13,055 bases of DNA, taken from positions 1-13,055 of IMG/VR virus record IMGVR_UViG_2657245664_000004. One strand, written 5' to 3'. A program made the translations under genes and the position numbers. Below, piece by piece: positions 2,831 to 12,923 of this stretch (position 1 is the first letter of the stretch; each line of letters opens with the position of its first letter). Source of the DNA: a virus (Duplodnaviria > Heunggongvirae > Uroviricota > Caudoviricetes). A model generated the notes under the pieces. It was not told the DNA's origin, searched no databases, and was given only the letters and a program-made list of their open reading frames with translations.

Positions 2831-2856
2831 ACCCGCCGCTGAGCGGGTTTTTTATT
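2831..2856 (+). terminator. tR'-like intrinsic terminator of the late transcript
   Basis: Stem CCCGC / GCGGG (plus flanking A-T pair), loop CGCTGA, then TTTTTTATT. About 50 nt downstream of the predicted start site. Confidence 0.6.
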
Positions 2857-2892
2857 GCGAAATTAATTACGGACCGTTATTATTCTGCTCCC

Positions 2893-2968
2893 GGCCCTTT
2901 AGCTCAGTGGTGAGAGCGAGCGACTCATAATCGCCAGGTCGCTGGTTCAAATCCAGCAAGGGCCACCA
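2893..2968 (+). tRNA. ileZ: tRNA-Ile2 (anticodon CAT, lysidine type; ileZ-like)
   Basis: Cloverleaf folded by hand: acceptor GGCCCTT / AAGGGCC, D-arm GCTC/GAGC, anticodon loop CTCATAA, T-arm GCTGG-TTCAAAT-CCAGC, encoded CCA end. Resembles E. coli ileX rather than tRNA-Met. Same Q-downstream location as ileZ in Stx phages. Confidence 0.85.
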
Positions 2969-3069
2969 TCACAAACCGCCATTAGCTTATCAGGAAGAGC
3001 AGACGACACGATAACAGGGTTGTTGGTGCGGGGGGCGGGTCCCCGATGGCGGTCCATTATCGGTATTCA

Positions 3070-3146
3070 GCGTTGTTAGCTCAGCCGGACAGAGCAATTG
3101 CCTTCTAAGCAATCGGTCACTGGTTCGAATCCAGTACAGCGCGCCA
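3070..3146 (+). tRNA. tRNA-Arg (anticodon TCT, reads AGA/AGG; argO/argN-like)
   Basis: Acceptor GCGTTGT / ACAGCGC (one G-U pair), D-arm GCTC/GAGC, anticodon stem ATTGC/GCAAT with loop CTTCTAA, T-arm ACTGG-TTCGAAT-CCAGT, encoded CCA. Confidence 0.85.
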
Positions 3147-3256
3147 TATTCATTCTTCCAGATTCCTTCCGGCAGAGCCTTATACTGAAATATACCTGGC
3201 TCAGGATATTGTTGAAAATATTATATGTTTGTCAAAAATAAAAGTTCTGTTAAGTA

Positions 3257-3610
3257 TTGATTGAATATTTGTTATACGGTCTAATGGTTTTTTCAGCATT
3301 AAATATTTATCATTCATATGGTGTGGGTAGAGTGAATATTGATGAGGCGTCGGGGTGTTTCATCCTTAGGCAGCGTATTGATATAGTCAATGCAGCACGA
3401 GCAAAGGCCTTCAGCCGTTTGACAGTTTTGTTCTGTACTCCTGATCGTCTTTCGGGAAGAGACGTTATTATTCTGAATAGTGATGCTATACAGAGGGTTT
3501 GCGATGAGTTCATGGTTGCTAATTCAGAATTATTTGCTCTTGTTCAGGAGTACAACAGAATAGCCAGGACCTGTGGTATGGATGAACTTCGGATTACTCA
3601 TCTGGGGTAG
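3257..3610 (+). CDS. Hypothetical protein in the stx-equivalent cargo position; start uncertain (TTG 3257 or ATG 3284)
   Basis: Only long ORF between the tRNAs and the terminator at 4002. No good SD and no recognisable family. Confidence 0.35.
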   Translation: MIEYLLYGLMVFSALNIYHSYGVGRVNIDEASGCFILRQRIDIVNAARAKAFSRLTVLFCTPDRLSGRDVIILNSDAIQRVCDEFMVANSELFALVQEYNRIARTCGMDELRITHLG

Positions 3611-4001
3611 ATACATATCTGGATTATCACCTGTTACGGTAAAAAGTGATTGCTTACTGTTTTTGTGAATGGCATTGCAGCAGCCGGATAATGTCAGTGC
3701 TGGCTGACGGTGTGCTGGTGGCGGGTGTGGTGGTTGTTGCTTTCCCGTTGCTGAAAAAGAAAACGCCAGACTGTTAGCCGGGTATCAGTTAGCGGGAGAA
3801 ATTTTTAAATACTTCACAATTCAGGCGGTTGACTGTTGTCTGGTTTGCGGGGAGTTTGTTAAAAGAAACTGGCATGGTGAATCCCCCTGTGCGGTGGGGC
3901 AATCAGCGAGTAGGTATATGGGATAATCGCGGATTCAGGTGCTGGTACTGAATTCACCGGGAGGCACCCGACACCATGCAATGGCACATAGCGCCACTCT
4001 C

Positions 4002-4031
4002 CAGCCCCTCTCCGGAGGGGCTGTTTATATT
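4002..4031 (+). terminator. Rho-independent terminator
   Basis: Perfect 9-bp stem CAGCCCCTC / GAGGGGCTG with TCCG loop, followed by TTTATATTGATTTT. Lies just 3' of the convergent minus-strand ORF. Confidence 0.55.
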
Positions 4032-4057
4032 GATTTTGTCAGATGTGAGTAAACTCC

Positions 4058-4393
4058 TTATGGACTTTGTTGTTTTAGTCCATAAGGACATATTTGCAGA
4101 GTGCAACGGTTATTAAAGCATTCATTCAATACGTTATCTGTATTTGTAGGGCATTCCTGGCTGTTTTTGATTAAATTCCAGAATGTTTTATTGAATGGTA
4201 CTACGTTGTAAATGGTTACAGGTAGCACTTTGTTATTGAGCATGATGCCTGTGTGAGTCAGTGTAAATATACTTTCAGGAGGTAAGAAAGCATCCGATTG
4301 ATACCAGATTATTAATTTTATTTTACTCCATATGACTGAAAAAGATATTCCGCATGATGGCTGGATAACTGTATCAATCACAATCCACTTCAT
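4058..4393 (-). CDS. Hypothetical AT-rich cargo protein (111 aa, C-terminal Cys-containing region)
   Basis: Minus-strand ORF with good SD (AAGGAAAGTAA-ATG). Much more AT-rich than the phage backbone. Four Cys in [26 protein letters not shown]. Divergent AT-rich intergenic region 4394-4637 is suited to promoters. Confidence 0.55.
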
Positions 4394-4652
4394 TTACTTT
4401 CCTTGTTTATGCCTTGCTGGTGATGTTCTGAAAAGTATAAATGATATTTTTGAATTAAACCATAGAGCAGAATTATTTTTCTGATGTTGTTTATTGTTTA
4501 TTTAAATACAGGGTGGTTTATATCTCGTCTTGTAGTTTATCCATGCATATCTGCTTGATAATCAGGTTTTTATTTAAGGTATGGTTTTGTGTTTTTTCTG
4601 TATTACATGTCAGGTATTTTAAAGAATTATTTTTCAGATGGTGGAAAGAACC

Positions 4653-4841
4653 ATGGCATTTAAACACTATGATGTTGTCAGGGCGGCGCCGCCGTCAGAT
4701 CTTGCGGAAAAGCTGACACATAAACTGAAAGAGGGCTGGCAGCCGTTTGGTAGTCCGGTGGCCATAACCCCTTATACCCTGATGCAGGCGATTGCAGCAG
4801 AAGGTGATGTGGTGGTCAGCGGTGCAACTGAGCCGGAGTGA
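4653..4841 (+). CDS. Small conserved lambdoid-prophage protein upstream of the lysis cassette (possibly DUF1737-type)
   Basis: ORF MAFKHYDVVRAAPPSDLAEKLTHKLKEGWQPFGSPVAITPYTLMQ... preceded by GGAAAGA SD. An in-frame ATG at 4638 is an alternative start. Family name is from memory and not verified. Confidence 0.5.
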   Translation: MAFKHYDVVRAAPPSDLAEKLTHKLKEGWQPFGSPVAITPYTLMQAIAAEGDVVVSGATEPE

Positions 4842-5084
4842 TACTACGTCATCGTACTGGCCCGGCATTCCAGGCCATAAAAGACAGTCTGGCAGTGGGA
4901 CTAAATACACTGACGCTGACGGATATTACCAAAAATGCAACGTATGGCGTTGAGATAGAAAGTCTGGTGCTGGAGATAAATGCACCGGCATCATCATAAA
5001 AAGTGAGCCAGTCAAATGGAAGGTATCGTTAAACTCACCGGTAGTGTCAGTGGGTCGTCTGAGACGCTTGCATGAGTTATCAGA

Positions 5085-5116
5085 GCCATCAGTAGTTAAC
5101 TGGTGGCTTTTTTATT
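5085..5116 (+). terminator. Putative intrinsic terminator upstream of the holin gene
   Basis: 8-bp stem GCCATCAG / CTGGTGGC (one G-U pair), 7-nt loop, then TTTTTTATT. Confidence 0.4.
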
Positions 5117-5148
5117 GTTGTCAGCTTCCGGATAACGGGAGACGGGGT

Positions 5149-5364
5149 ATGGACCAGATGGAAAAAATCACAACAGGTGTGTCATACACCACGTCAGCGG
5201 TGGGAACGGGCTACTGGTTCCTGCAGTTGCTGGACAGGGTTTCCCCGTCTCAGTGGGCGGCAATAGGCGTGCTGGGGAGTCTGCTGTTTGGGCTGCTGAC
5301 ATATCTGACTAACCTGTATTTCAAAATCAGAGAGGACCGTCGTAAGGCTGCACGGGGAGAGTAA
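5149..5364 (+). CDS. S: Class II holin (phage 21 S-like pinholin) with dual start
   Basis: 71-aa product [26 protein letters not shown]...[17 protein letters not shown] closely resembles S21 as recalled. Two TM segments. Met1 and Met4 give the antiholin/holin dual-start arrangement. SD GGGAGA upstream. Confidence 0.85.
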
Positions 5365-5368
5365 TTCA

Positions 5369-5719
5369 ATGACTCAAAACTATGAACTGATTGTGAAAGG
5401 GATCCGCAATTTTGAGAATAAAGTTACGGTAACTTTAGCGTTACGGGACAAAAAACGCTTTGACGGTGAAATTTTTGACCTGGACATCTCGCTGGACCGT
5501 GTTGAAGGTGCCGCGCTGGAGTTTTATGAGGCAGCAGCCAGAATGAGCATCAGACAGGTCTTCCTGGATGTTGCTGCCGGGTTATGTGAAGGGGATGAGC
5601 AGTCGCCGGAAAAGCGCCCCGTAATTTTAGAGGCGCAGAATGTATGGATAACCTACAAAGGAAAGCTACCGGGAAGAATTACTGGTTCTCTGAAGACTCC
5701 TCCGGAATCACAACCTTAA
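5369..5719 (+). CDS. Uncharacterized protein encoded between holin and endolysin (possibly YdfR/DUF1327-like)
   Basis: 116-aa ORF with strong SD (GGGGAGAG) starting 5 nt after the holin stop. No TM or signal peptide. Qin prophage ydfR occupies the same S-to-R position; homology not verified. Confidence 0.55.
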   Translation: MTQNYELIVKGIRNFENKVTVTLALRDKKRFDGEIFDLDISLDRVEGAALEFYEAAARMSIRQVFLDVAAGLCEGDEQSPEKRPVILEAQNVWITYKGKLPGRITGSLKTPPESQP

Positions 5720-5782: not shown

Positions 5783-6316
5783 ATGAACGCAAAAATCAGA
5801 TACGGCCTGTCGGCTGCCGTTCTGGCACTGATTGCCGTCGGTGCGCCCGCGCCTGATATTCTCGACCAGTTTCTGGATGAAAAAGAAGGTAACCACACAA
5901 CGGCATACCGCGATGGGTCCGGCATCTGGACCATCTGTCGGGGTGCCACGATGGTGGATGGAAAACCCGTTTTTCCCGGTATGAAACTGTCGAAGGAAAA
6001 ATGCGACCAGGTCAACGCCATTGAGCGTGATAAGGCGCTGGCATGGGTGGAGCGCAATATTAAAGTACCACTGACCGAACCACAAAAAGCGGGTATAGCG
6101 TCATTCTGTCCCTATAACATTGGCCCCGGTAAGTGTTTCCCGTCGACGTTTTATAAGCGGCTGAATGCCGGTGATCGTAAGGGCGCATGCGAGGCGATTC
6201 GCTGGTGGATAAAAGATGGTGGGCGCGATTGCCGCATACGTTCAAATAACTGCTATGGACAGGTTATTCGTCGTGACCAGGAAAGCGCATTAGCCTGTTG
6301 GGGGATAGAGCAGTGA
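5783..6316 (+). CDS. R: SAR endolysin (GH24 lysozyme, R21-like)
   Basis: N-terminal Gly/Ala-rich weakly hydrophobic segment ([17 protein letters not shown]) consistent with a signal-arrest-release domain. Catalytic E-x8-D-x5-T pattern ([18 protein letters not shown]). Pairs with the pinholin. Confidence 0.85.
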
Positions 6317-6774
6317 GCAGAGTCGCCGCGATTATTTATGCTTTGGTTATCTGCATCATCGTCTGCCTGTCGTGGGCGGTCAATCATTACCGTGATAACG
6401 CCATCGCCTACAAAGAACAGCGTGATAAAAAAGTCAGTGAGCTGAAGCAGTCGATCGCCACCATCGCTGACATGCAGCAGCGTCAGCGTGATGTTGCTGC
6501 ACTCGATGCAAAGTACTCGAGAGAATTAGCCAATGCGAAAGCTGAAAATGAAACTCTGCGCGCTGATGTTGCCGCTGGTCGTCGTCGGTTGCACATCAAA
6601 GCAGTCTGTCAGTCAGTGCGTGAAGCCACCACCGCCTCCGGCGTGGATAATGCAACCAGCCCCCGACTGGCAGACACCGCTGAACGGGATTATTTCACCC
6701 TCAGAGAGAGGCTGATCACTATGCAAAAACAACTGGAAGGAACCCAGAAGTATATTAATGAGCAGTGCAGATAG
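6313..6774 (+). CDS. Rz: Rz i-spanin
   Basis: GTG start overlapping the endolysin stop. N-terminal TM then coiled-coil region. Near-identical to lambda Rz as recalled (…[21 protein letters not shown]). Confidence 0.85.
6533..6715 (+). CDS. Rz1: Rz1 o-spanin (outer-membrane lipoprotein embedded in Rz, +1 frame)
   Basis: 60-aa ORF wholly inside Rz. Lipobox LVVVGC and proline-rich stretch PPPPPAW. Matches lambda Rz1 as recalled. Confidence 0.85.
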
Positions 6775-6805: not shown

Positions 6806-7099
6806 TTATTGTGAGCAATACACACGCGCTTCCAGTGGAGTATAAATGCCTAAAGTAATAAAACCGAGAAATCCATTTACGAATGTTTGCTGGGTTTCTG
6901 TTTTAACAACATTTTCTGCGCCGCCACAAATTTTGGCTGCATCAACAGTTTTCTCCTGTCCAATTCCCGAAACGAAGAAATGATGGGTGATGGTTTCCTT
7001 TGGTGCTACTGCTGCCGGTTTGTTTTGAACAGTAAACGTCTGTTGAGCACATCCTGTAATAAGCAGGGCCAGCGCAGTAGCGAGTAGCATTTTTTTCAT
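6806..7099 (-). CDS. bor: Bor lipoprotein (serum-resistance, Bor/Iss family)
   Basis: 97-aa minus-strand ORF MKKMLLATALALLITGCAQQTFTVQNKPAAV... essentially identical to lambda Bor as recalled. Lipobox LITGC. Confidence 0.9.
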   Translation of the reverse strand: MKKMLLATALALLITGCAQQTFTVQNKPAAVAPKETITHHFFVSGIGQEKTVDAAKICGGAENVVKTETQQTFVNGFLGFITLGIYTPLEARVYCSQ

Positions 7100-7307
7100 G
7101 GTGTTATTCCCGATGCTTTTTGAAGTTCGCAGAATCGTATGTGTAGAAAATTAAACAAACCCTAAACAATGAGTTGAAATTTCATATTGTTAATATTTAT
7201 TAATGTATGTCAGGTGCGATGAATCGTCATTGTATTCCCGGATTAACTATGTCCACAGCCCTGACGGGGAACTTCTCTGCGGGAGTGTCCGGGAATAATT
7301 AAAAACG

Positions 7308-7808
7308 ATGCACACAGGGTTTTTACCGCGTTTATGGTTCGCGGGTTTGTCTCTCATGCTCCCCGTTCTGCTGCTTGGTTCTTCACGTTACGTGGTTGTC
7401 TCCTTTACCCGGAAGATCTGGAGCGCGTCACGCAGATTATTAATGGTGGGAAAAACGGCATTAAAGACCGCCGTGAACGTTACGTCAAAGCTAAAGCCGC
7501 ATTGGTGTGAGGTCTATGTGGGAATTGAAATGATTGTCGGCCTGATTGCTGCCTTGCTGGCAGTAATAGCCGGTGCTTTTGGTCTGGGTAAATCTCGCGG
7601 TGCAAGTATCGCTGAGACAAAAGCGAACCAGCAACGCACTAAAGAACGTGCAACTGCTACTGAAGTCGTTGCAATACGCCGGGTAGAAACAACAAAAGGA
7701 GCCTGGGATGTACAGCAGATTGTTAATCATCTTCCTGATGGCGATGTTGACCGTGAGTTGCGCGAAAGATTTACCCGAAAAAACTGCAGTAACAGACACG
7801 GCTTGTGA
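7308..7808 (+). CDS. Putative envelope/membrane protein (lambda p78 / YbcV-like position); start uncertain
   Basis: ORF in the bor-to-cos interval where lambda and DLP12 carry a putative envelope protein. The C-terminal two-thirds (from MIVGLIAALLAVIAGAFGLGKS..., ATG about 7530) looks like a small TM protein; the N-terminal 70 aa are less protein-like. 3' end overlaps the next ORF by about 100 nt. Confidence 0.4.
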   Translation: MHTGFLPRLWFAGLSLMLPVLLLGSSRYVVVSFTRKIWSASRRLLMVGKTALKTAVNVTSKLKPHWCEVYVGIEMIVGLIAALLAVIAGAFGLGKSRGASIAETKANQQRTKERATATEVVAIRRVETTKGAWDVQQIVNHLPDGDVDRELRERFTRKNCSNRHGL

Positions 7809-7923
7809 CTGGGTGAACATCATCTACCTCACTGAGCACGATATTACCGTGCAGGATAAGCAGACGAAGCGGGACATATTGGCGCATAACAAATCAGTGC
7901 AGGCTAACTGTAGAATGTATTGA
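7708..7923 (+). CDS. Putative small lipoprotein (lambda p79 / YbcW-like position)
   Basis: 71-aa ORF with a signal-peptide-like N-terminus ending in a marginal lipobox (LTVSC). Start may be an internal Met. Confidence 0.4.
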   Translation: MYSRLLIIFLMAMLTVSCAKDLPEKTAVTDTACDWVNIIYLTEHDITVQDKQTKRDILAHNKSVQANCRMY

Positions 7924-8185: not shown

Positions 8186-8386
8186 ATGAGCCCGGCTGAG
8201 TTCTACGATTTCTATGGCATTAAACCTGCAGAGATGATGACTGGAGAAACTGTTAACAACTTTGCTTCCAGGGTACTTGCTCAACAAACGAGTACGAGTG
8301 GTAGTACCGGCGTTTGGTACTCTCAAGGTACTGCAGCGCAGGCTAAGCAAAATCAAAGTACACATCATCAACTTTACACCTACTAA
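8186..8386 (+). CDS. Hypothetical small protein (66 aa), first gene of the cargo cassette
   Basis: Strong SD AGGAG 8 nt before the ATG. Soluble, with a Ser/Thr/Gln-rich C-terminal half. Stop is 5 nt before the next ATG, suggesting translational coupling. AT-rich relative to the backbone. Confidence 0.6.
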   Translation: MSPAEFYDFYGIKPAEMMTGETVNNFASRVLAQQTSTSGSTGVWYSQGTAAQAKQNQSTHHQLYTY

Positions 8387-8391
8387 ACACC

Positions 8392-9294
8392 ATGCCTAAT
8401 TGGAGTGACGTACTGGGCGAGATGACGGCTCTCGCCCAGAAGAGTCCGATGGATGAGGTTCGCCGTAAATATTTATTACAACTGTCTAATCACACTGGAA
8501 GAAATGTAATTACATATTATTCCGGATGGTTGCAACATGGTGGTGCAGAAGTCCGACATCTCACCCTGATGACAGATGATGATAAAAATGGATTAATGAC
8601 TGTTATTAATGGTTTAGATGTTACAAAGGGGGTGGATTTAATATTACATACCCCTGGAGGTGATATCGCTGCCTTAGAGTCTATTGGTCATTATCTGCGT
8701 TCTAAGTTTGGGACTGATATCAGAGCTATCGTTCCTATGATTTCAATGTCATGTGGTACCATGCTTGCGTGCTGTGCTAATGAAATCATAATGGGTAAAC
8801 AGTCCAATATTGGCCCGATTGACCCTCAGTTTAATGGATTTTCTACACATGCTATTATTGAGGAATGGAATAGAGCTCAGGCGGAAATTTTTAACAATCC
8901 AGCAGCTGTGCAAATGTGGCAGTTTATACTTCAGAAACTCAACCCCACTATTATCGGAGAGTGTGAAAAAGCTATCCAATGGGCGAATGAGATTGTCAAG
9001 CACTGGCTTATGACGGGTATGTTTGCAAATGATCCGGAGTCAGAAACAAAAGCAACTCATGTATGCTCAGAGCTGAACAATCATCATACAACTTACACTC
9101 ATTCGAGACATATCCATTTCGATAAAGCTCAGAAAATTGGATTGAATGTTACAGAACTGGAAAGTGATCAAGTCCTCCAGGATTTGGTTTTGACCATACA
9201 TCACAGTTACATGCACTCGTTTGGTGGAGCCCCGATCGCAAAGATCATAGAAAACCATAATGGGAATGCTATGATTTGGAATATGCAATCGTAA
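8392..9294 (+). CDS. ClpP/crotonase-fold serine peptidase (S49 / SDH-proteinase-like)
   Basis: 300-aa ORF with motifs typical of ClpP-clan S49/SDH peptidases: LILHTPGGD..., a candidate nucleophile Ser in VPMISMSCGTMLACCANEIIMG, and NIGPIDPQ. Family assignment is by motif recognition, not a search. Confidence 0.65.
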   Translation: MPNWSDVLGEMTALAQKSPMDEVRRKYLLQLSNHTGRNVITYYSGWLQHGGAEVRHLTLMTDDDKNGLMTVINGLDVTKGVDLILHTPGGDIAALESIGHYLRSKFGTDIRAIVPMISMSCGTMLACCANEIIMGKQSNIGPIDPQFNGFSTHAIIEEWNRAQAEIFNNPAAVQMWQFILQKLNPTIIGECEKAIQWANEIVKHWLMTGMFANDPESETKATHVCSELNNHHTTYTHSRHIHFDKAQKIGLNVTELESDQVLQDLVLTIHHSYMHSFGGAPIAKIIENHNGNAMIWNMQS

Positions 9295-9654: not shown

Positions 9655-10200
9655 ATGGAAGTCAACAAAAAGCAGCTGGCTGACATTTTCGGTGCGAGTA
9701 TCCGTACCATTCAGAACTGGCAGGAACAGGGAATGCCCGTTCTGCGAGGCGGTGGCAAGGGTAATGAGGTGCTTTATGACTCTGCCGCCGTTATAAAATG
9801 GTATGCCGAAAGGGATGCTGAAATTGAGAACGAAAAGCTGCGCCGGGAGGTTGAAGAACTGCGCCAGGCCAGCGAGGCAGATCTCCAGCCAGGGACTATT
9901 GAGTACGAACGCCATCGACTTACGCGTGCGCAGGCCGACGCACAGGAACTGAAGAATGCCAGAGACTCAGCTGAAGTGGTGGAAACCGCATTCTGTACTT
10001 TCGTGCTGTCGCGGATCGCAGGTGAAATTGCCAGTATTCTCGACGGGATCCCCCTGTCGGTGCAGCGGCGTTTTCCGGAACTGGAAAACCGACATGTTGA
10101 TTTCCTGAAACGGGATATCATCAAAGCCATGAACAAAGCAGCCGCGCTGGATGAACTGATACCGGGGTTGCTGAGTGAATATATCGAACAGTCAGGTTAA
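9655..10200 (+). CDS. Nu1: Terminase small subunit Nu1
   Basis: 181-aa product MEVNKKQLADIFGASIRTIQNWQEQGMPVLRGGGKGNEVLYDSAAVIKWYAERD... matches lambda Nu1 essentially residue for residue as recalled, including the N-terminal winged-HTH. Confidence 0.95.
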   Translation: MEVNKKQLADIFGASIRTIQNWQEQGMPVLRGGGKGNEVLYDSAAVIKWYAERDAEIENEKLRREVEELRQASEADLQPGTIEYERHRLTRAQADAQELKNARDSAEVVETAFCTFVLSRIAGEIASILDGIPLSVQRRFPELENRHVDFLKRDIIKAMNKAAALDELIPGLLSEYIEQSG

Positions 10201-11353
10201 CAGGCTGCGGCATTTTGTCCGCGCCGGGCTTCGCTCACTGTTCAGGCCGGAGCCACAGACCGCCGTTGAATGGGCGGATGCTAATTACTATCTCCCGAAA
10301 GAATCCGCATACCAGGAAGGGCGCTGGGAAACACTGCCCTTTCAGCGGGCCATCATGAATGCGATGGGCAGCGACTACATCCGTGAGGTGAATGTGGTGA
10401 AGTCTGCCCGTGTCGGTTATTCCAAAATGCTGCTGGGTGTTTATGCCTACTTTATAGAGCATAAGCAGCGCAACACCCTTATCTGGTTGCCGACGGATGG
10501 TGATGCCGAGAACTTTATGAAAACCCACGTTGAGCCGACCATCCGCGATATTCCGTCGCTGCTGGCGCTGGCTCCGTGGTATGGCAAAAAGCACCGGGAT
10601 AACACGCTCACTATGAAGCGTTTTTCCAATGGTCGTGGCTTCTGGTGCCTGGGCGGTAAAGCGGCAAAAAACTACCGTGAAAAGTCGGTGGATGTGGCGG
10701 GTTATGATGAACTTGCTGCCTTTGATGAGGATATTGAACAGGAAGGCTCTCCGACGTTCCTTGGCGACAAACGTATTGAAGGCTCGGTCTGGCCAAAGTC
10801 CATCCGTGGCTCCACGCCCAAAGTGAGAGGCACCTGCCAGATTGAGCGTGCAGCCAGTGAATCCCTGCATTTTATGCGTTTTCATGTTGCCTGCCCGCAC
10901 TGCGGGGAGGAGCAGTATCTTAAATTTGGCGACAAAGAGACGCCGTTTGGCCTCAAATGGACGCCGGATGACCCCTCCAGCGTGTTTTATCTCTGCGAGC
11001 ATAATGCCTGCGTCATCCGCCAGCAGGAGCTGGACTTCACTGATGCCCGTTATATCTGCGAAAAGACCGGGATCTGGACCCGTGATGGCATTCTCTGGTT
11101 TTCGTCATCCGGTGAAGAGATTGAGCCGCCGGACAGCGTGACCTTTCACATCTGGACGGCGTACAGCCCGTTCACCACCTGGGTGCAGATTGTCAAAGAC
11201 TGGATGAAAACGAAAGGGGATACGGGAAAACGTAAAACCTTCGTAAACACCACGCTCGGTGAGACATGGGAAGCGAAAATCGGCGAACGTCCGGATGCTG
11301 AGGTGATGGCGGAGCGGAAAGAGCATTATTCAGCGCCCGTTACAACACGCTGA
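10175..11353 (+). pseudogene. A: Terminase large subunit A, N-terminal about 388 codons only (truncated by deletion)
   Basis: Start overlaps the Nu1 3' end as in lambda. Matches lambda gpA from MNISNSQVNRLRH... to ...ERKEHYSAPV, then diverges and stops (TTR*). Lambda gpA is 641 aa. Confidence 0.85.
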
Positions 11354-12597
11354 TGGCGGCGGCGAAAAAGGATTATGAAGCGACGCTGAAAAAGCCGAAA
11401 CAGTCCGGCGTGAAGGTGTCTGCGGGCGATCGTCAGGAAGACAGTGCTCATGCTGCCCTGCTGACGCTTCAGGCAGAACTCCGGACGCTGGAGAAGCATG
11501 CCGGAGCAAATGAGAAAATCAGCCAGCAGCGCCGGGATTTGTGGAAGGCGGAGAGTCAGTTCGCGGTACTGGAGGAGGCGGCGCAACGTCGCCAGCTGTC
11601 TGCACAGGAGAAATCCCTGCTGGCGCATAAAGATGAGACGCTGGAGTACAAACGCCAGCTGGCTGCACTTGGCGACAAGGTTACGTATCAGGAGCGCCTG
11701 AACGCGCTGGCGCAGCAGGCGGATAAATTCGCACAGCAGCAACGGGCAAAACGGGCCGCCATTGATGCGAAAAGCCGGGGGCTGACTGACCGGCAGGCAG
11801 AACGGGAAGCCACGGAACAGCGCCTGAAGGAACAGTATGGCGATAATCCGCTGGCGCTGAATAACGTCATGTCAGAGCAGAAAAAGACCTGGGCGGCTGA
11901 AGACCAGCTTCGCGGGAGCTGGATGGCAGGCCTGAAGTCCGGCTGGAGTGAGTGGGAAGAGAGCGCCACGGACAGTATGTCGCAGGTAAAAAGTGCAGCC
12001 ACGCAGACCTTTGATGGTATTGCACAGAATATGGCGGCGATGCTGACCGGCAGTGAGCAGAACTGGCGCAGCTTCACCCGTTCCGTGCTGTCCATGATGA
12101 CAGAAATTCTGCTTAAGCAGGCAATGGTGGGGATTGTCGGGAGTATCGGCAGCGCCATTGGCGGGGCTGTTGGTGGCGGCGCATCCGCGTCAGGCGGTAC
12201 AGCCATTCAGGCCGCTGCGGCGAAATTCCATTTTGCAACCGGAGGATTTACGGGAACCGGCGGCAAATATGAGCCAGCGGGGATTGTTCACCGTGGTGAA
12301 TTTGTCTTCACGAAGGAGGCAACCAGCCGGATTGGCGTGGGGAATCTTTACCGGCTGATGCGCGGCTATGCCACCGGCGGTTATGTCGGTACACCGGGCA
12401 GCATGGCAGACAGCCGGTCGCAGGCGTCCGGGACGTTTGAGCAGAATAACCATGTGGTGATTAACAACGACGGCACGAACGGGCAGATAGGTCCGGCTGC
12501 TCTGAAGGCGGTGTATGACATGGCCCGCAAGGGTGCCCGTGATGAAATTCAGACACAGATGCGTGATGGTGGCCTGTTCTCCGGAGGTGGACGATGA
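11353..12597 (+). pseudogene. H: Tail tape-measure protein H, C-terminal about 414 codons (fragment fused behind truncated A)
   Basis: Matches the C-terminal half of lambda gpH as recalled (...KKDYEATLKKPKQSGVKVSAGDRQ... to ...MRDGGLFSGGGR). The H reading frame is open from 11302 but has no upstream counterpart. The whole head module and most tail genes are absent between A and H. Confidence 0.85.
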
Positions 12598-12923
12598 AGA
12601 CCTTCCGCTGGAAAGTGAAACCCGGTATGGATGTGGCTTCGGTCCCTTCTGTAAGAAAGGTGCGCTTTGGTGATGGCTATTCTCAGCGAGCGCCTGCCGG
12701 GCTGAATGCCAACCTGAAAACGTACAGCGTGACGCTTTCTGTCCCCCGTGAGGAGGCCACGGTACTGGAGTCGTTTCTGGAAGAGCACGGGGGCTGGAAA
12801 TCCTTTCTGTGGACGCCGCCTTATGAGTGGCGGCAGATAAAGGTGACCTGCGCAAAATGGTCGTCGCGGGTCAGTATGTTGCGTGTTGAGTTCAGCGCAG
12901 AGTTTGAACAGGTGGTGAACTGA
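12594..12923 (+). CDS. M: Minor tail protein M
   Basis: 109-aa product MKTFRWKVKPGMDVASVPSVRKVRFGDGYSQRAPAGLNANLKTYSVTLSVPREE... matches lambda gpM as recalled. Start overlaps the H stop. Confidence 0.9.
   Translation: MKTFRWKVKPGMDVASVPSVRKVRFGDGYSQRAPAGLNANLKTYSVTLSVPREEATVLESFLEEHGGWKSFLWTPPYEWRQIKVTCAKWSSRVSMLRVEFSAEFEQVVN

Follow-up and report, generated by a model that had tools for sequence, protein, structure and literature searches.

An AT-rich cargo gene between Q and the lysis cassette of a lambdoid prophage is very likely iraL, a moron encoding a small RssB anti-adaptor

The protease ClpXP receives sigma-S (RpoS) from the adaptor RssB, and anti-adaptors bind RssB and thereby block this handover. 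One of them, IraL, was described in Escherichia coli CFT073 by Hryckowian et al. (mBio 2014; PMC4045071), where it is encoded by C_RS06710, a locus named c1429 in PMC12890032. IraL and RssB co-purify in both directions, and the contact made by IraL in two-hybrid assays is limited to the N-terminal receiver domain of RssB, while IraM touches both domains (PMC4045071). [quoted passage not shown] Both the loss of Fur and a temperature shift to 37 °C also alter iraL mRNA or protein in CFT073, and the gene is therefore expressed in lysogens.

A structural framework for this family is provided by IraM of E. coli K-12 (YcgW/ElbA; PDB ID: 8TWD), which is induced by PhoPQ and by low Mg2+. Residues 1-78 of IraM form a β-barrel with a PmrD-like fold, superposing on E. 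coli PmrD with an r.m.s.d. of ~1 Å, and this barrel occupies the α4-β5-α5 face of the receiver domain, the sigma-S-binding face of RssB; IraM also remodels the interdomain linker of RssB (PMC10844676). The C-terminal tail of IraM, said to be less well conserved and modelled as flexible by AlphaFold, was cut off for crystallization because it was proteolytically unstable, and tail-less IraM still binds RssB (PMC10844676). PmrD itself, a PhoP-induced connector guarding phospho-PmrA, is like IraL a small receiver-domain binder, with PmrA instead of RssB as its target. Salmonella RssC constitutes the third member of the iraL-iraM-rssC family, with ~49% ClustalW identity between rssC and iraL (PMC4045071); a word-seeded protein search with IraL did not retrieve RssC.

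With regard to genomic location, the closest described counterparts of iraL are stxAB of phage 933W and bor/iss, which are likewise lysogen-expressed accessory genes of foreign base composition located in or beside the late operon. The stxAB genes lie on the late strand and are transcribed largely by read-through from pR′ with Q, whereas iraL runs antisense, from a promoter of its own. The gene order in phage 933W is Q, pR′, ileZ-argN-argO, stxA2B2, nanS-p (with a DUF1737 N-terminus), S and R.

The window analyzed here is a stretch of 13,055 nucleotides that Pfam, tRNA, RefSeq and PHROG assignments identify as a lambdoid prophage. Its main features are as follows.

495-1544, + strand: DUF968 gene
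1557-1931, + strand: RusA gene
1928-2749, + strand: Q-type antiterminator gene
2893-2968, + strand: tRNA with CAT anticodon (tRNA-Ile in RefSeq)
3070-3146, + strand: tRNA-Arg (TCT)
3646-3777, + strand: DUF3927/TciB-like ORF
3843-4032, + strand: STnc100-family sRNA gene (Rfam RF02076), neighbour of iraL
4058-4393, - strand: iraL coding sequence, 111 aa, stop codon included (ORF listing, ATG start)
4638-4841, + strand: DUF1737 ORF, truncated N-terminus of nanS-p (SASA esterase; Pfam PF08410, E = 4e-17)
within 5044-5364, + strand: S21-type holin gene
5369-5719, + strand: DUF1327/YdfR gene
5783-6316, + strand: lysozyme gene
6298-6774 and 6533-6715, + strand: Rz and Rz1 genes
6806-7099, - strand: bor/iss
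9655-10200, + strand: Nu1 (terminase small subunit) gene
10175-11353, + strand: truncated terminase large subunit gene

Reading the sequence anew bore out the first-pass description of the ORF at 4058-4393 as a 111-aa minus-strand frame with a good Shine-Dalgarno sequence (AAGGAAAG, 6-13 nt 5′ of the ATG), low GC content and four cysteines in its C-terminal peptide (C81, C92, C97 and C102), to which C14 is to be added. By composition, the ORF has 34.5% GC and the DNA upstream of it at 4394-4637, which had rightly been singled out as AT-rich, has 27.9%, against ~50% in the flanking phage genes (Q, 49%; DUF1737, 54%; holin, 54%; lysozyme, 53%). The orientation also holds, the ORF being antisense to Q, the two tRNAs, and the holin, lysozyme and Rz genes, and hence opposite to the late transcript.

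To that first reading the ORF had seemed impossible to assign to a family, a view that profile searches and direct comparison overturn. The protein matches NCBIfam NF007393 ('anti-adapter protein IraM') with 162 bits against a curated cutoff of 121, and the match spans residues 1-110 of 111 and profile positions 1-113 of 114. Residues 1-78 align without gaps to the IraM chain of the IraM-RssB crystal (PDB 8twd_A; E = 9e-32), and the protein also matches the unannotated PHROG phrog_4407 (E = 3e-73). Furthermore, the coding sequence is identical to that of CFT073 C_RS06710 at 336/336 nt, with 100% protein identity. This gene sits in the potB prophage, integrated beside potC/potB, and its product is the RefSeq 'anti-adapter protein IraM' WP_000871291.1, which is also encoded by MS6198 and JJ1886. 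In Hryckowian et al., iraL alleles are those whose entire coding sequence is at least 95% identical in nucleotides to that of CFT073 iraL (PMC4045071), a definition that includes the window ORF. We thus conclude, with high confidence, that this ORF is iraL, a lambdoid-prophage moron encoding a small RssB anti-adaptor. In view of its NF007393 and 8twd_A matches and its identity to CFT073 iraL, it is an already known, named and experimentally characterised gene and not a new toxin or defence factor.

Other searches with the IraL protein were negative. PADLOC returned no family at E ≤ 0.01, and the idea of a defence system was dropped because of this. A scan against a 2025 copy of Pfam-A gave no match at E ≤ 0.1, including PF11183 (PmrD), so that the sequence relationship between IraL and PmrD is marginal; precomputed Pfam tables do assign IraL-family proteins, this same protein among them, to PF11183, and we treat the discrepancy as a difference in Pfam version or threshold. 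An AlphaFold2 model of IraL built on a 16-sequence alignment (mean pLDDT 36.9, pTM 0.24) did not independently confirm the fold.

Comparison with K-12 IraM delimits what the two proteins share. They belong to the same NF007393 family and length class, have all five cysteine positions in common, and are 59.5% identical in amino acid sequence (58.9% in PMC4045071), rising to 65% over residues 1-78, with 70.6% identity between the genes at the nucleotide level; IraL carries a 4-residue C-terminal extension (QQSP). Between window iraL and K-12 iraM, dN/dS is 0.156 (dS ~1.6), which indicates that the iraL frame is evolving under purifying selection. Among 15 iraL-allele loci other than that of the window, substitutions are synonymous only, except for one phage copy carrying I25V and T98M. 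Homologues outside E. coli include a 100% identical protein in E. albertii and a protein with 54% identity in a Citrobacter species. The iraM-type copy in E. coli ECGI0523 (L014, 4001-4318) has a disrupted frame with internal stops and is an iraM pseudogene there.

We mapped the RssB contact residues listed for IraM as clusters I to III (PMC10844676) onto IraL. [quoted passage not shown] By contrast, residues contacting the RssB C-terminal domain and linker (clusters II and III) are partly substituted, with 3/5 identical in cluster II (T13S and L75I) and 2/4 in cluster III (H63N and I64V). We infer that these substitutions may be tied to the N-terminal-domain-only binding of RssB by IraL.

In the mechanism that we propose, the window-encoded IraL would bind the N-terminal receiver domain of RssB, as published work has established for the identical protein, with its N-terminal β-barrel (residues 1-78) probably covering the α4-β5-α5 face, by analogy with the IraM-RssB crystal. 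With RssB bound in this way, ClpXP would degrade sigma-S more slowly, and sigma-S would then build up even during exponential growth, priming the general stress response. In CFT073, a sigma-70-type promoter of its own on the strand opposite the late operon allows iraL to be expressed in the lysogen without prophage induction; the same is expected of the window allele, but with a one-base deletion in its -35-like hexamer.

The placement of this gene was examined by aligning the window to phage 933W with blastn. Window positions 2853-3154 correspond to the tRNA region, 3814-3900 to the 87 nt directly 3′ of stxB, and 4652-4760 to the start of nanS-p, and these anchors therefore place the stxAB slot at window positions 3155-3813. 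This interval contains a phrog_2873 ORF and the DUF3927 ORF, and the alignment places iraL and its promoter in the equivalent of the stxB-nanS-p intergenic region, beside the stxAB slot. The 'stx-equivalent locus' of the first-pass annotation is thus accurate as a name for the moron region between Q and the lysis genes and, in detail, one slot off. Its broader proposal is upheld: iraL is an accessory gene (a moron), AT-rich and acquired horizontally, that sits between Q and the lysis genes of a lambdoid prophage. The DUF1737 ORF on the far side of iraL is flagged in RefSeq as incomplete, missing its C-terminus; a full nanS-p, encoding a ~617-aa SASA-family 9-O-acetyl sialic acid esterase, occupies this position in other iraL loci and in 933W.

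Two further elements of this region are of note in their own right. The phrog_2873 ORF (3257-3610, +; E = 4e-70) encodes 117 aa from a TTG start, has a GC content of 40.7%, matches no Pfam, NCBIfam or PADLOC family, and is unannotated in the RefSeq records inspected. The STnc100 sRNA gene (3843-4032, +) matches RF02076 over its full length (123 bits against a gathering threshold of 47; E = 3.5e-27) and, according to a terminator scan, ends in an intrinsic terminator (stem at 4002-4023, followed by a T tract). The sRNA gene and iraL converge, the end of the terminator lying 26 nt from the iraL stop codon. As iraL itself lacks a U-tract terminator, its transcripts may continue antisense into the sRNA gene. 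A partial 'hypothetical protein' pseudogene annotated in RefSeq opposite STnc100 (~3862-3987) is probably a spurious call. STnc100 is related to the PasD sRNAs of Stx-type prophages (2026 preprint).

The layout of the window is shared by CFT073, MS6198, JJ1886 and phage vB_EcoS-640R1. In CFT073, the order is likewise Q, tRNAs, DUF3927, iraL (antisense), DUF1737 and holin, and the two prophages diverge after ~6550, with that of the window being truncated. A survey of related prophages, which the first-pass annotation had called for, shows that iraL is kept in the same slot: in each of 10 distinct contexts encoding exactly this protein (10/10), it lies antisense between Q and an S21-type holin gene, beside a full or truncated nanS-p. 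These contexts include two Q families, PF03589 and PF06323. The gene is also found in phages induced from E. coli, and 34,862 blocks of a public sequence collection list this exact protein. K-12 iraM differs in this respect: its neighbour is icdC, and it lies shortly beyond the point at which the annotation of e14 ends.

The right-hand part of the window bears on the state of the prophage. The terminase large subunit ends at 392 aa, versus ~641 aa, and abuts at 11353 an ORF (11353-12597) whose C-terminal part resembles the C-terminus of a lambda-type tape-measure protein (gpH); an M-like minor tail gene follows at 12594-12923. Since the truncated terminase abuts a gpH-like C-terminus followed by an M-like gene, this arrangement suggests that a deletion removed the head genes and most tail genes and that the prophage is defective. 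The terminase/tape-measure junction was absent from complete E. coli genomes, from species-representative genomes and from the exact-protein records.

Between the lysis genes and Nu1, the window carries other accessory elements. A perfect PhoP box, TGTTTAGGGTTTGTTTA, is located at 7152-7168 (-), 53-69 nt upstream of the bor/iss start codon, and PhoP boxes with at most one mismatch number 3 in the window against 0.2 expected. The borD gene of DLP12 has been described as PhoP-activated and induced by low Mg2+. Downstream of bor lies a second Rz/Rz1-like spanin pair (7308-7808 and 7708-7923, +; phrog_1026, E = 9e-27, and phrog_1275, E = 1.5e-27), probably the remnant of a recombined lysis module. 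A cargo gene of ~40% GC at 8392-9294 (+), between bor and Nu1, encodes a ClpP-like SDH-type serine protease (PF01972, E = 4e-22; phrog_11747); it is preceded by a 66-aa phrog_25714 ORF (small ORFs at 8186-8386), gives no match in PADLOC, and occupies the same bor-Nu1 slot in other lambdoid prophages without iraL.

The promoter region of iraL, in which the window and CFT073 differ, comprises the following elements.

4394-4637, - strand: AT-rich regulatory region upstream of iraL (27.9% GC)
4394-4426, - strand: 33-nt iraL 5′ UTR with Shine-Dalgarno sequence AAGGAAAG (by homology to the CFT073 5′-RACE)
4434-4439, - strand: -10 hexamer TATACT, 7 nt upstream of the transcription start site (TSS; sequence reading)
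4454-4461, - strand: -35 region, GGTTTA-ATTC, with the C of the TTTACA hexamer deleted (17-locus alignment)
4488-4504, + strand: PhoP-box-like direct repeat TGTTTATTGTTTATTTA, one mismatch, centred ~70 nt upstream of the TSS

The mRNA 5′ end published for CFT073 from 5′-RACE, ACATCACCAGCAAGGCATAAACAAGGAAA (PMC4045071), matches positions 4398-4426 (-) exactly and occurs once in the window, which therefore places the TSS at 4426 (-) with a 33-nt leader. This start, mapped for the identical CFT073 gene, agrees with the first-pass proposal of expression independent of the late operon. All 17 aligned iraL loci have the same -10 hexamer and TSS base; the 7-nt stretch between them varies at -2. The window and CFT073 share the -10 and TSS sequences and differ at four promoter and leader positions: the deletion in the -35 region, A for G at -2, and GT for CC between the Shine-Dalgarno sequence and the ATG.

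The CFT073-type TTTACA hexamer (GGTTTACATTC or GGTTTACAATC) is present in 12 of the 16 loci other than that of the window. Its C is deleted, as in the window, in MS6198, in one JJ1886 copy and in ECMA0423, and is replaced by T in one phage copy. The upstream 131 nt of window iraL fall in the 95-99% identity band with respect to the CFT073 type, and the promoter and upstream region have been reported to be at least 96% conserved to CFT073 across copies (PMC4045071). The iraL promoter and start segment occur in ~1,446 of 5,426 complete E. coli genomes; 166 complete genomes carry the window promoter type with at most one mismatch in 131 nt and 32 carry the CFT073 type at the same stringency. Judged from these counts, the window promoter allele is a recurrent polymorphism rather than a private lesion. 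The iraL2 copy of JJ1886 has a mutated -35 whose effect on expression its authors leave undecided (PMC4045071), and we infer that this mutation is the deletion seen in the window.

It is possible, though unlikely, that the window carries the same gene in a silent or much weaker form, kept without activity by a prophage in decay. The -35 region of the window is GGTTTA-ATTC, that of most other loci GGTTTACATTC or GGTTTACAATC, a consensus promoter scan of the window did not call the iraL promoter, and H-NS, which silences DNA of the kind seen upstream of iraL (27.9% GC), could contribute. The defective state of the prophage, with its truncated terminase abutting a tape-measure remnant at 11353, and the undecided status of JJ1886 iraL2 (PMC4045071) point the same way. 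Against this, the TATACT -10 element, the surroundings of the TSS and the A/T-rich DNA further upstream have all stayed intact, the coding sequence shows no decay and matches the functional CFT073 allele at every base, and a dead allele would not be expected to keep its promoter type in 166 complete E. coli genomes that belong to several lineages. Moreover, although TTTACA is the best candidate for the CFT073 -35, it may not be the true element, because its spacer to the -10 is only 15 nt.

Rather than silencing iraL, the promoter allele might place it under another input, such as PhoP, as for iraM, instead of the constitutive log-phase expression seen in CFT073. The PhoP-box-like repeat at 4488-4504 is invariant in all aligned iraL loci (n = 17), and we take it only as a lead, because the local chance of at least one such match in the 244-nt AT-rich region is ~4.7%. 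The promoter regions of iraL and K-12 iraM are unrelated, with no similarity detected between them beyond short AT-rich words and a blastn alignment that ends at the coding sequence.

A second proposal concerns the C-terminal tail of IraL, which displays the motif C-P-x9-C-x4-C-x4-C-P-[YH]-G (C81, C92, C97 and C102). All 16 family members in the alignment, the most distant at 53% identity, keep the four cysteines, and the Citrobacter homologue has them too, with one spacing of x5. No study of the tail cysteines turned up in a literature search that included the paper on the IraM structure and Battesti 2013, zinc having been sought in the structure paper only. Speculatively, the anti-adaptor might be gated, in its stability or activity, by a tail module that binds zinc or senses redox state; we hold this reading, taken with that of an altered promoter input, to be distinctly unlikely. 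Both the role of the tail and the expression of the promoter allele are modest points, and neither would alter the general picture.

The selective forces acting on iraL could also be read differently, with RssB antagonism as described and the gene maintained mainly for the benefit of the phage and not for host stress fitness, for example through tuning of ClpXP or sigma-S that affects lysogen stability, induction or superinfection. The fixed slot of iraL in lambdoid prophages and induced phages, seen in every context examined, and its association with both PF03589 and PF06323 antiterminators, as for a mobile phage module, are what such a role would predict. The published phenotypes of IraL, however, are host sigma-S levels and not induction or exclusion (PMC4045071), and iraL is retained in defective prophages such as that of the window, which are unable to gain from it as phages; we regard a mainly phage-directed role as highly improbable, and keep host sigma-S stabilization as the preferred reading.

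Finally, a spurious ORF in AT-rich DNA, or a toxin, immunity, anti-defence or exclusion factor outside known families, as first suspected from the low GC content, moron location and Cys-containing tail and compatible with the lack of a match at E ≤ 0.1 in the 2025 Pfam-A, deserves almost no credence and is refuted by the NF007393 and 8twd_A matches, by identity to an iraL with a mapped TSS and published mutant phenotypes that characterise it as an RssB anti-adaptor (PMC4045071), by a conserved frame with dN/dS of 0.156 and by the absence of any PADLOC family.

Taken together, these data replace an 'unassignable cargo ORF' with the fourth E. coli RssB anti-adaptor, and the practical gain is a correct annotation. 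IraL raises RpoS during growth and is linked to uropathogenic E. coli and Shigella lineages. The iraL gene is thus an example of a prophage moron that rewires a core host regulator instead of encoding a toxin.
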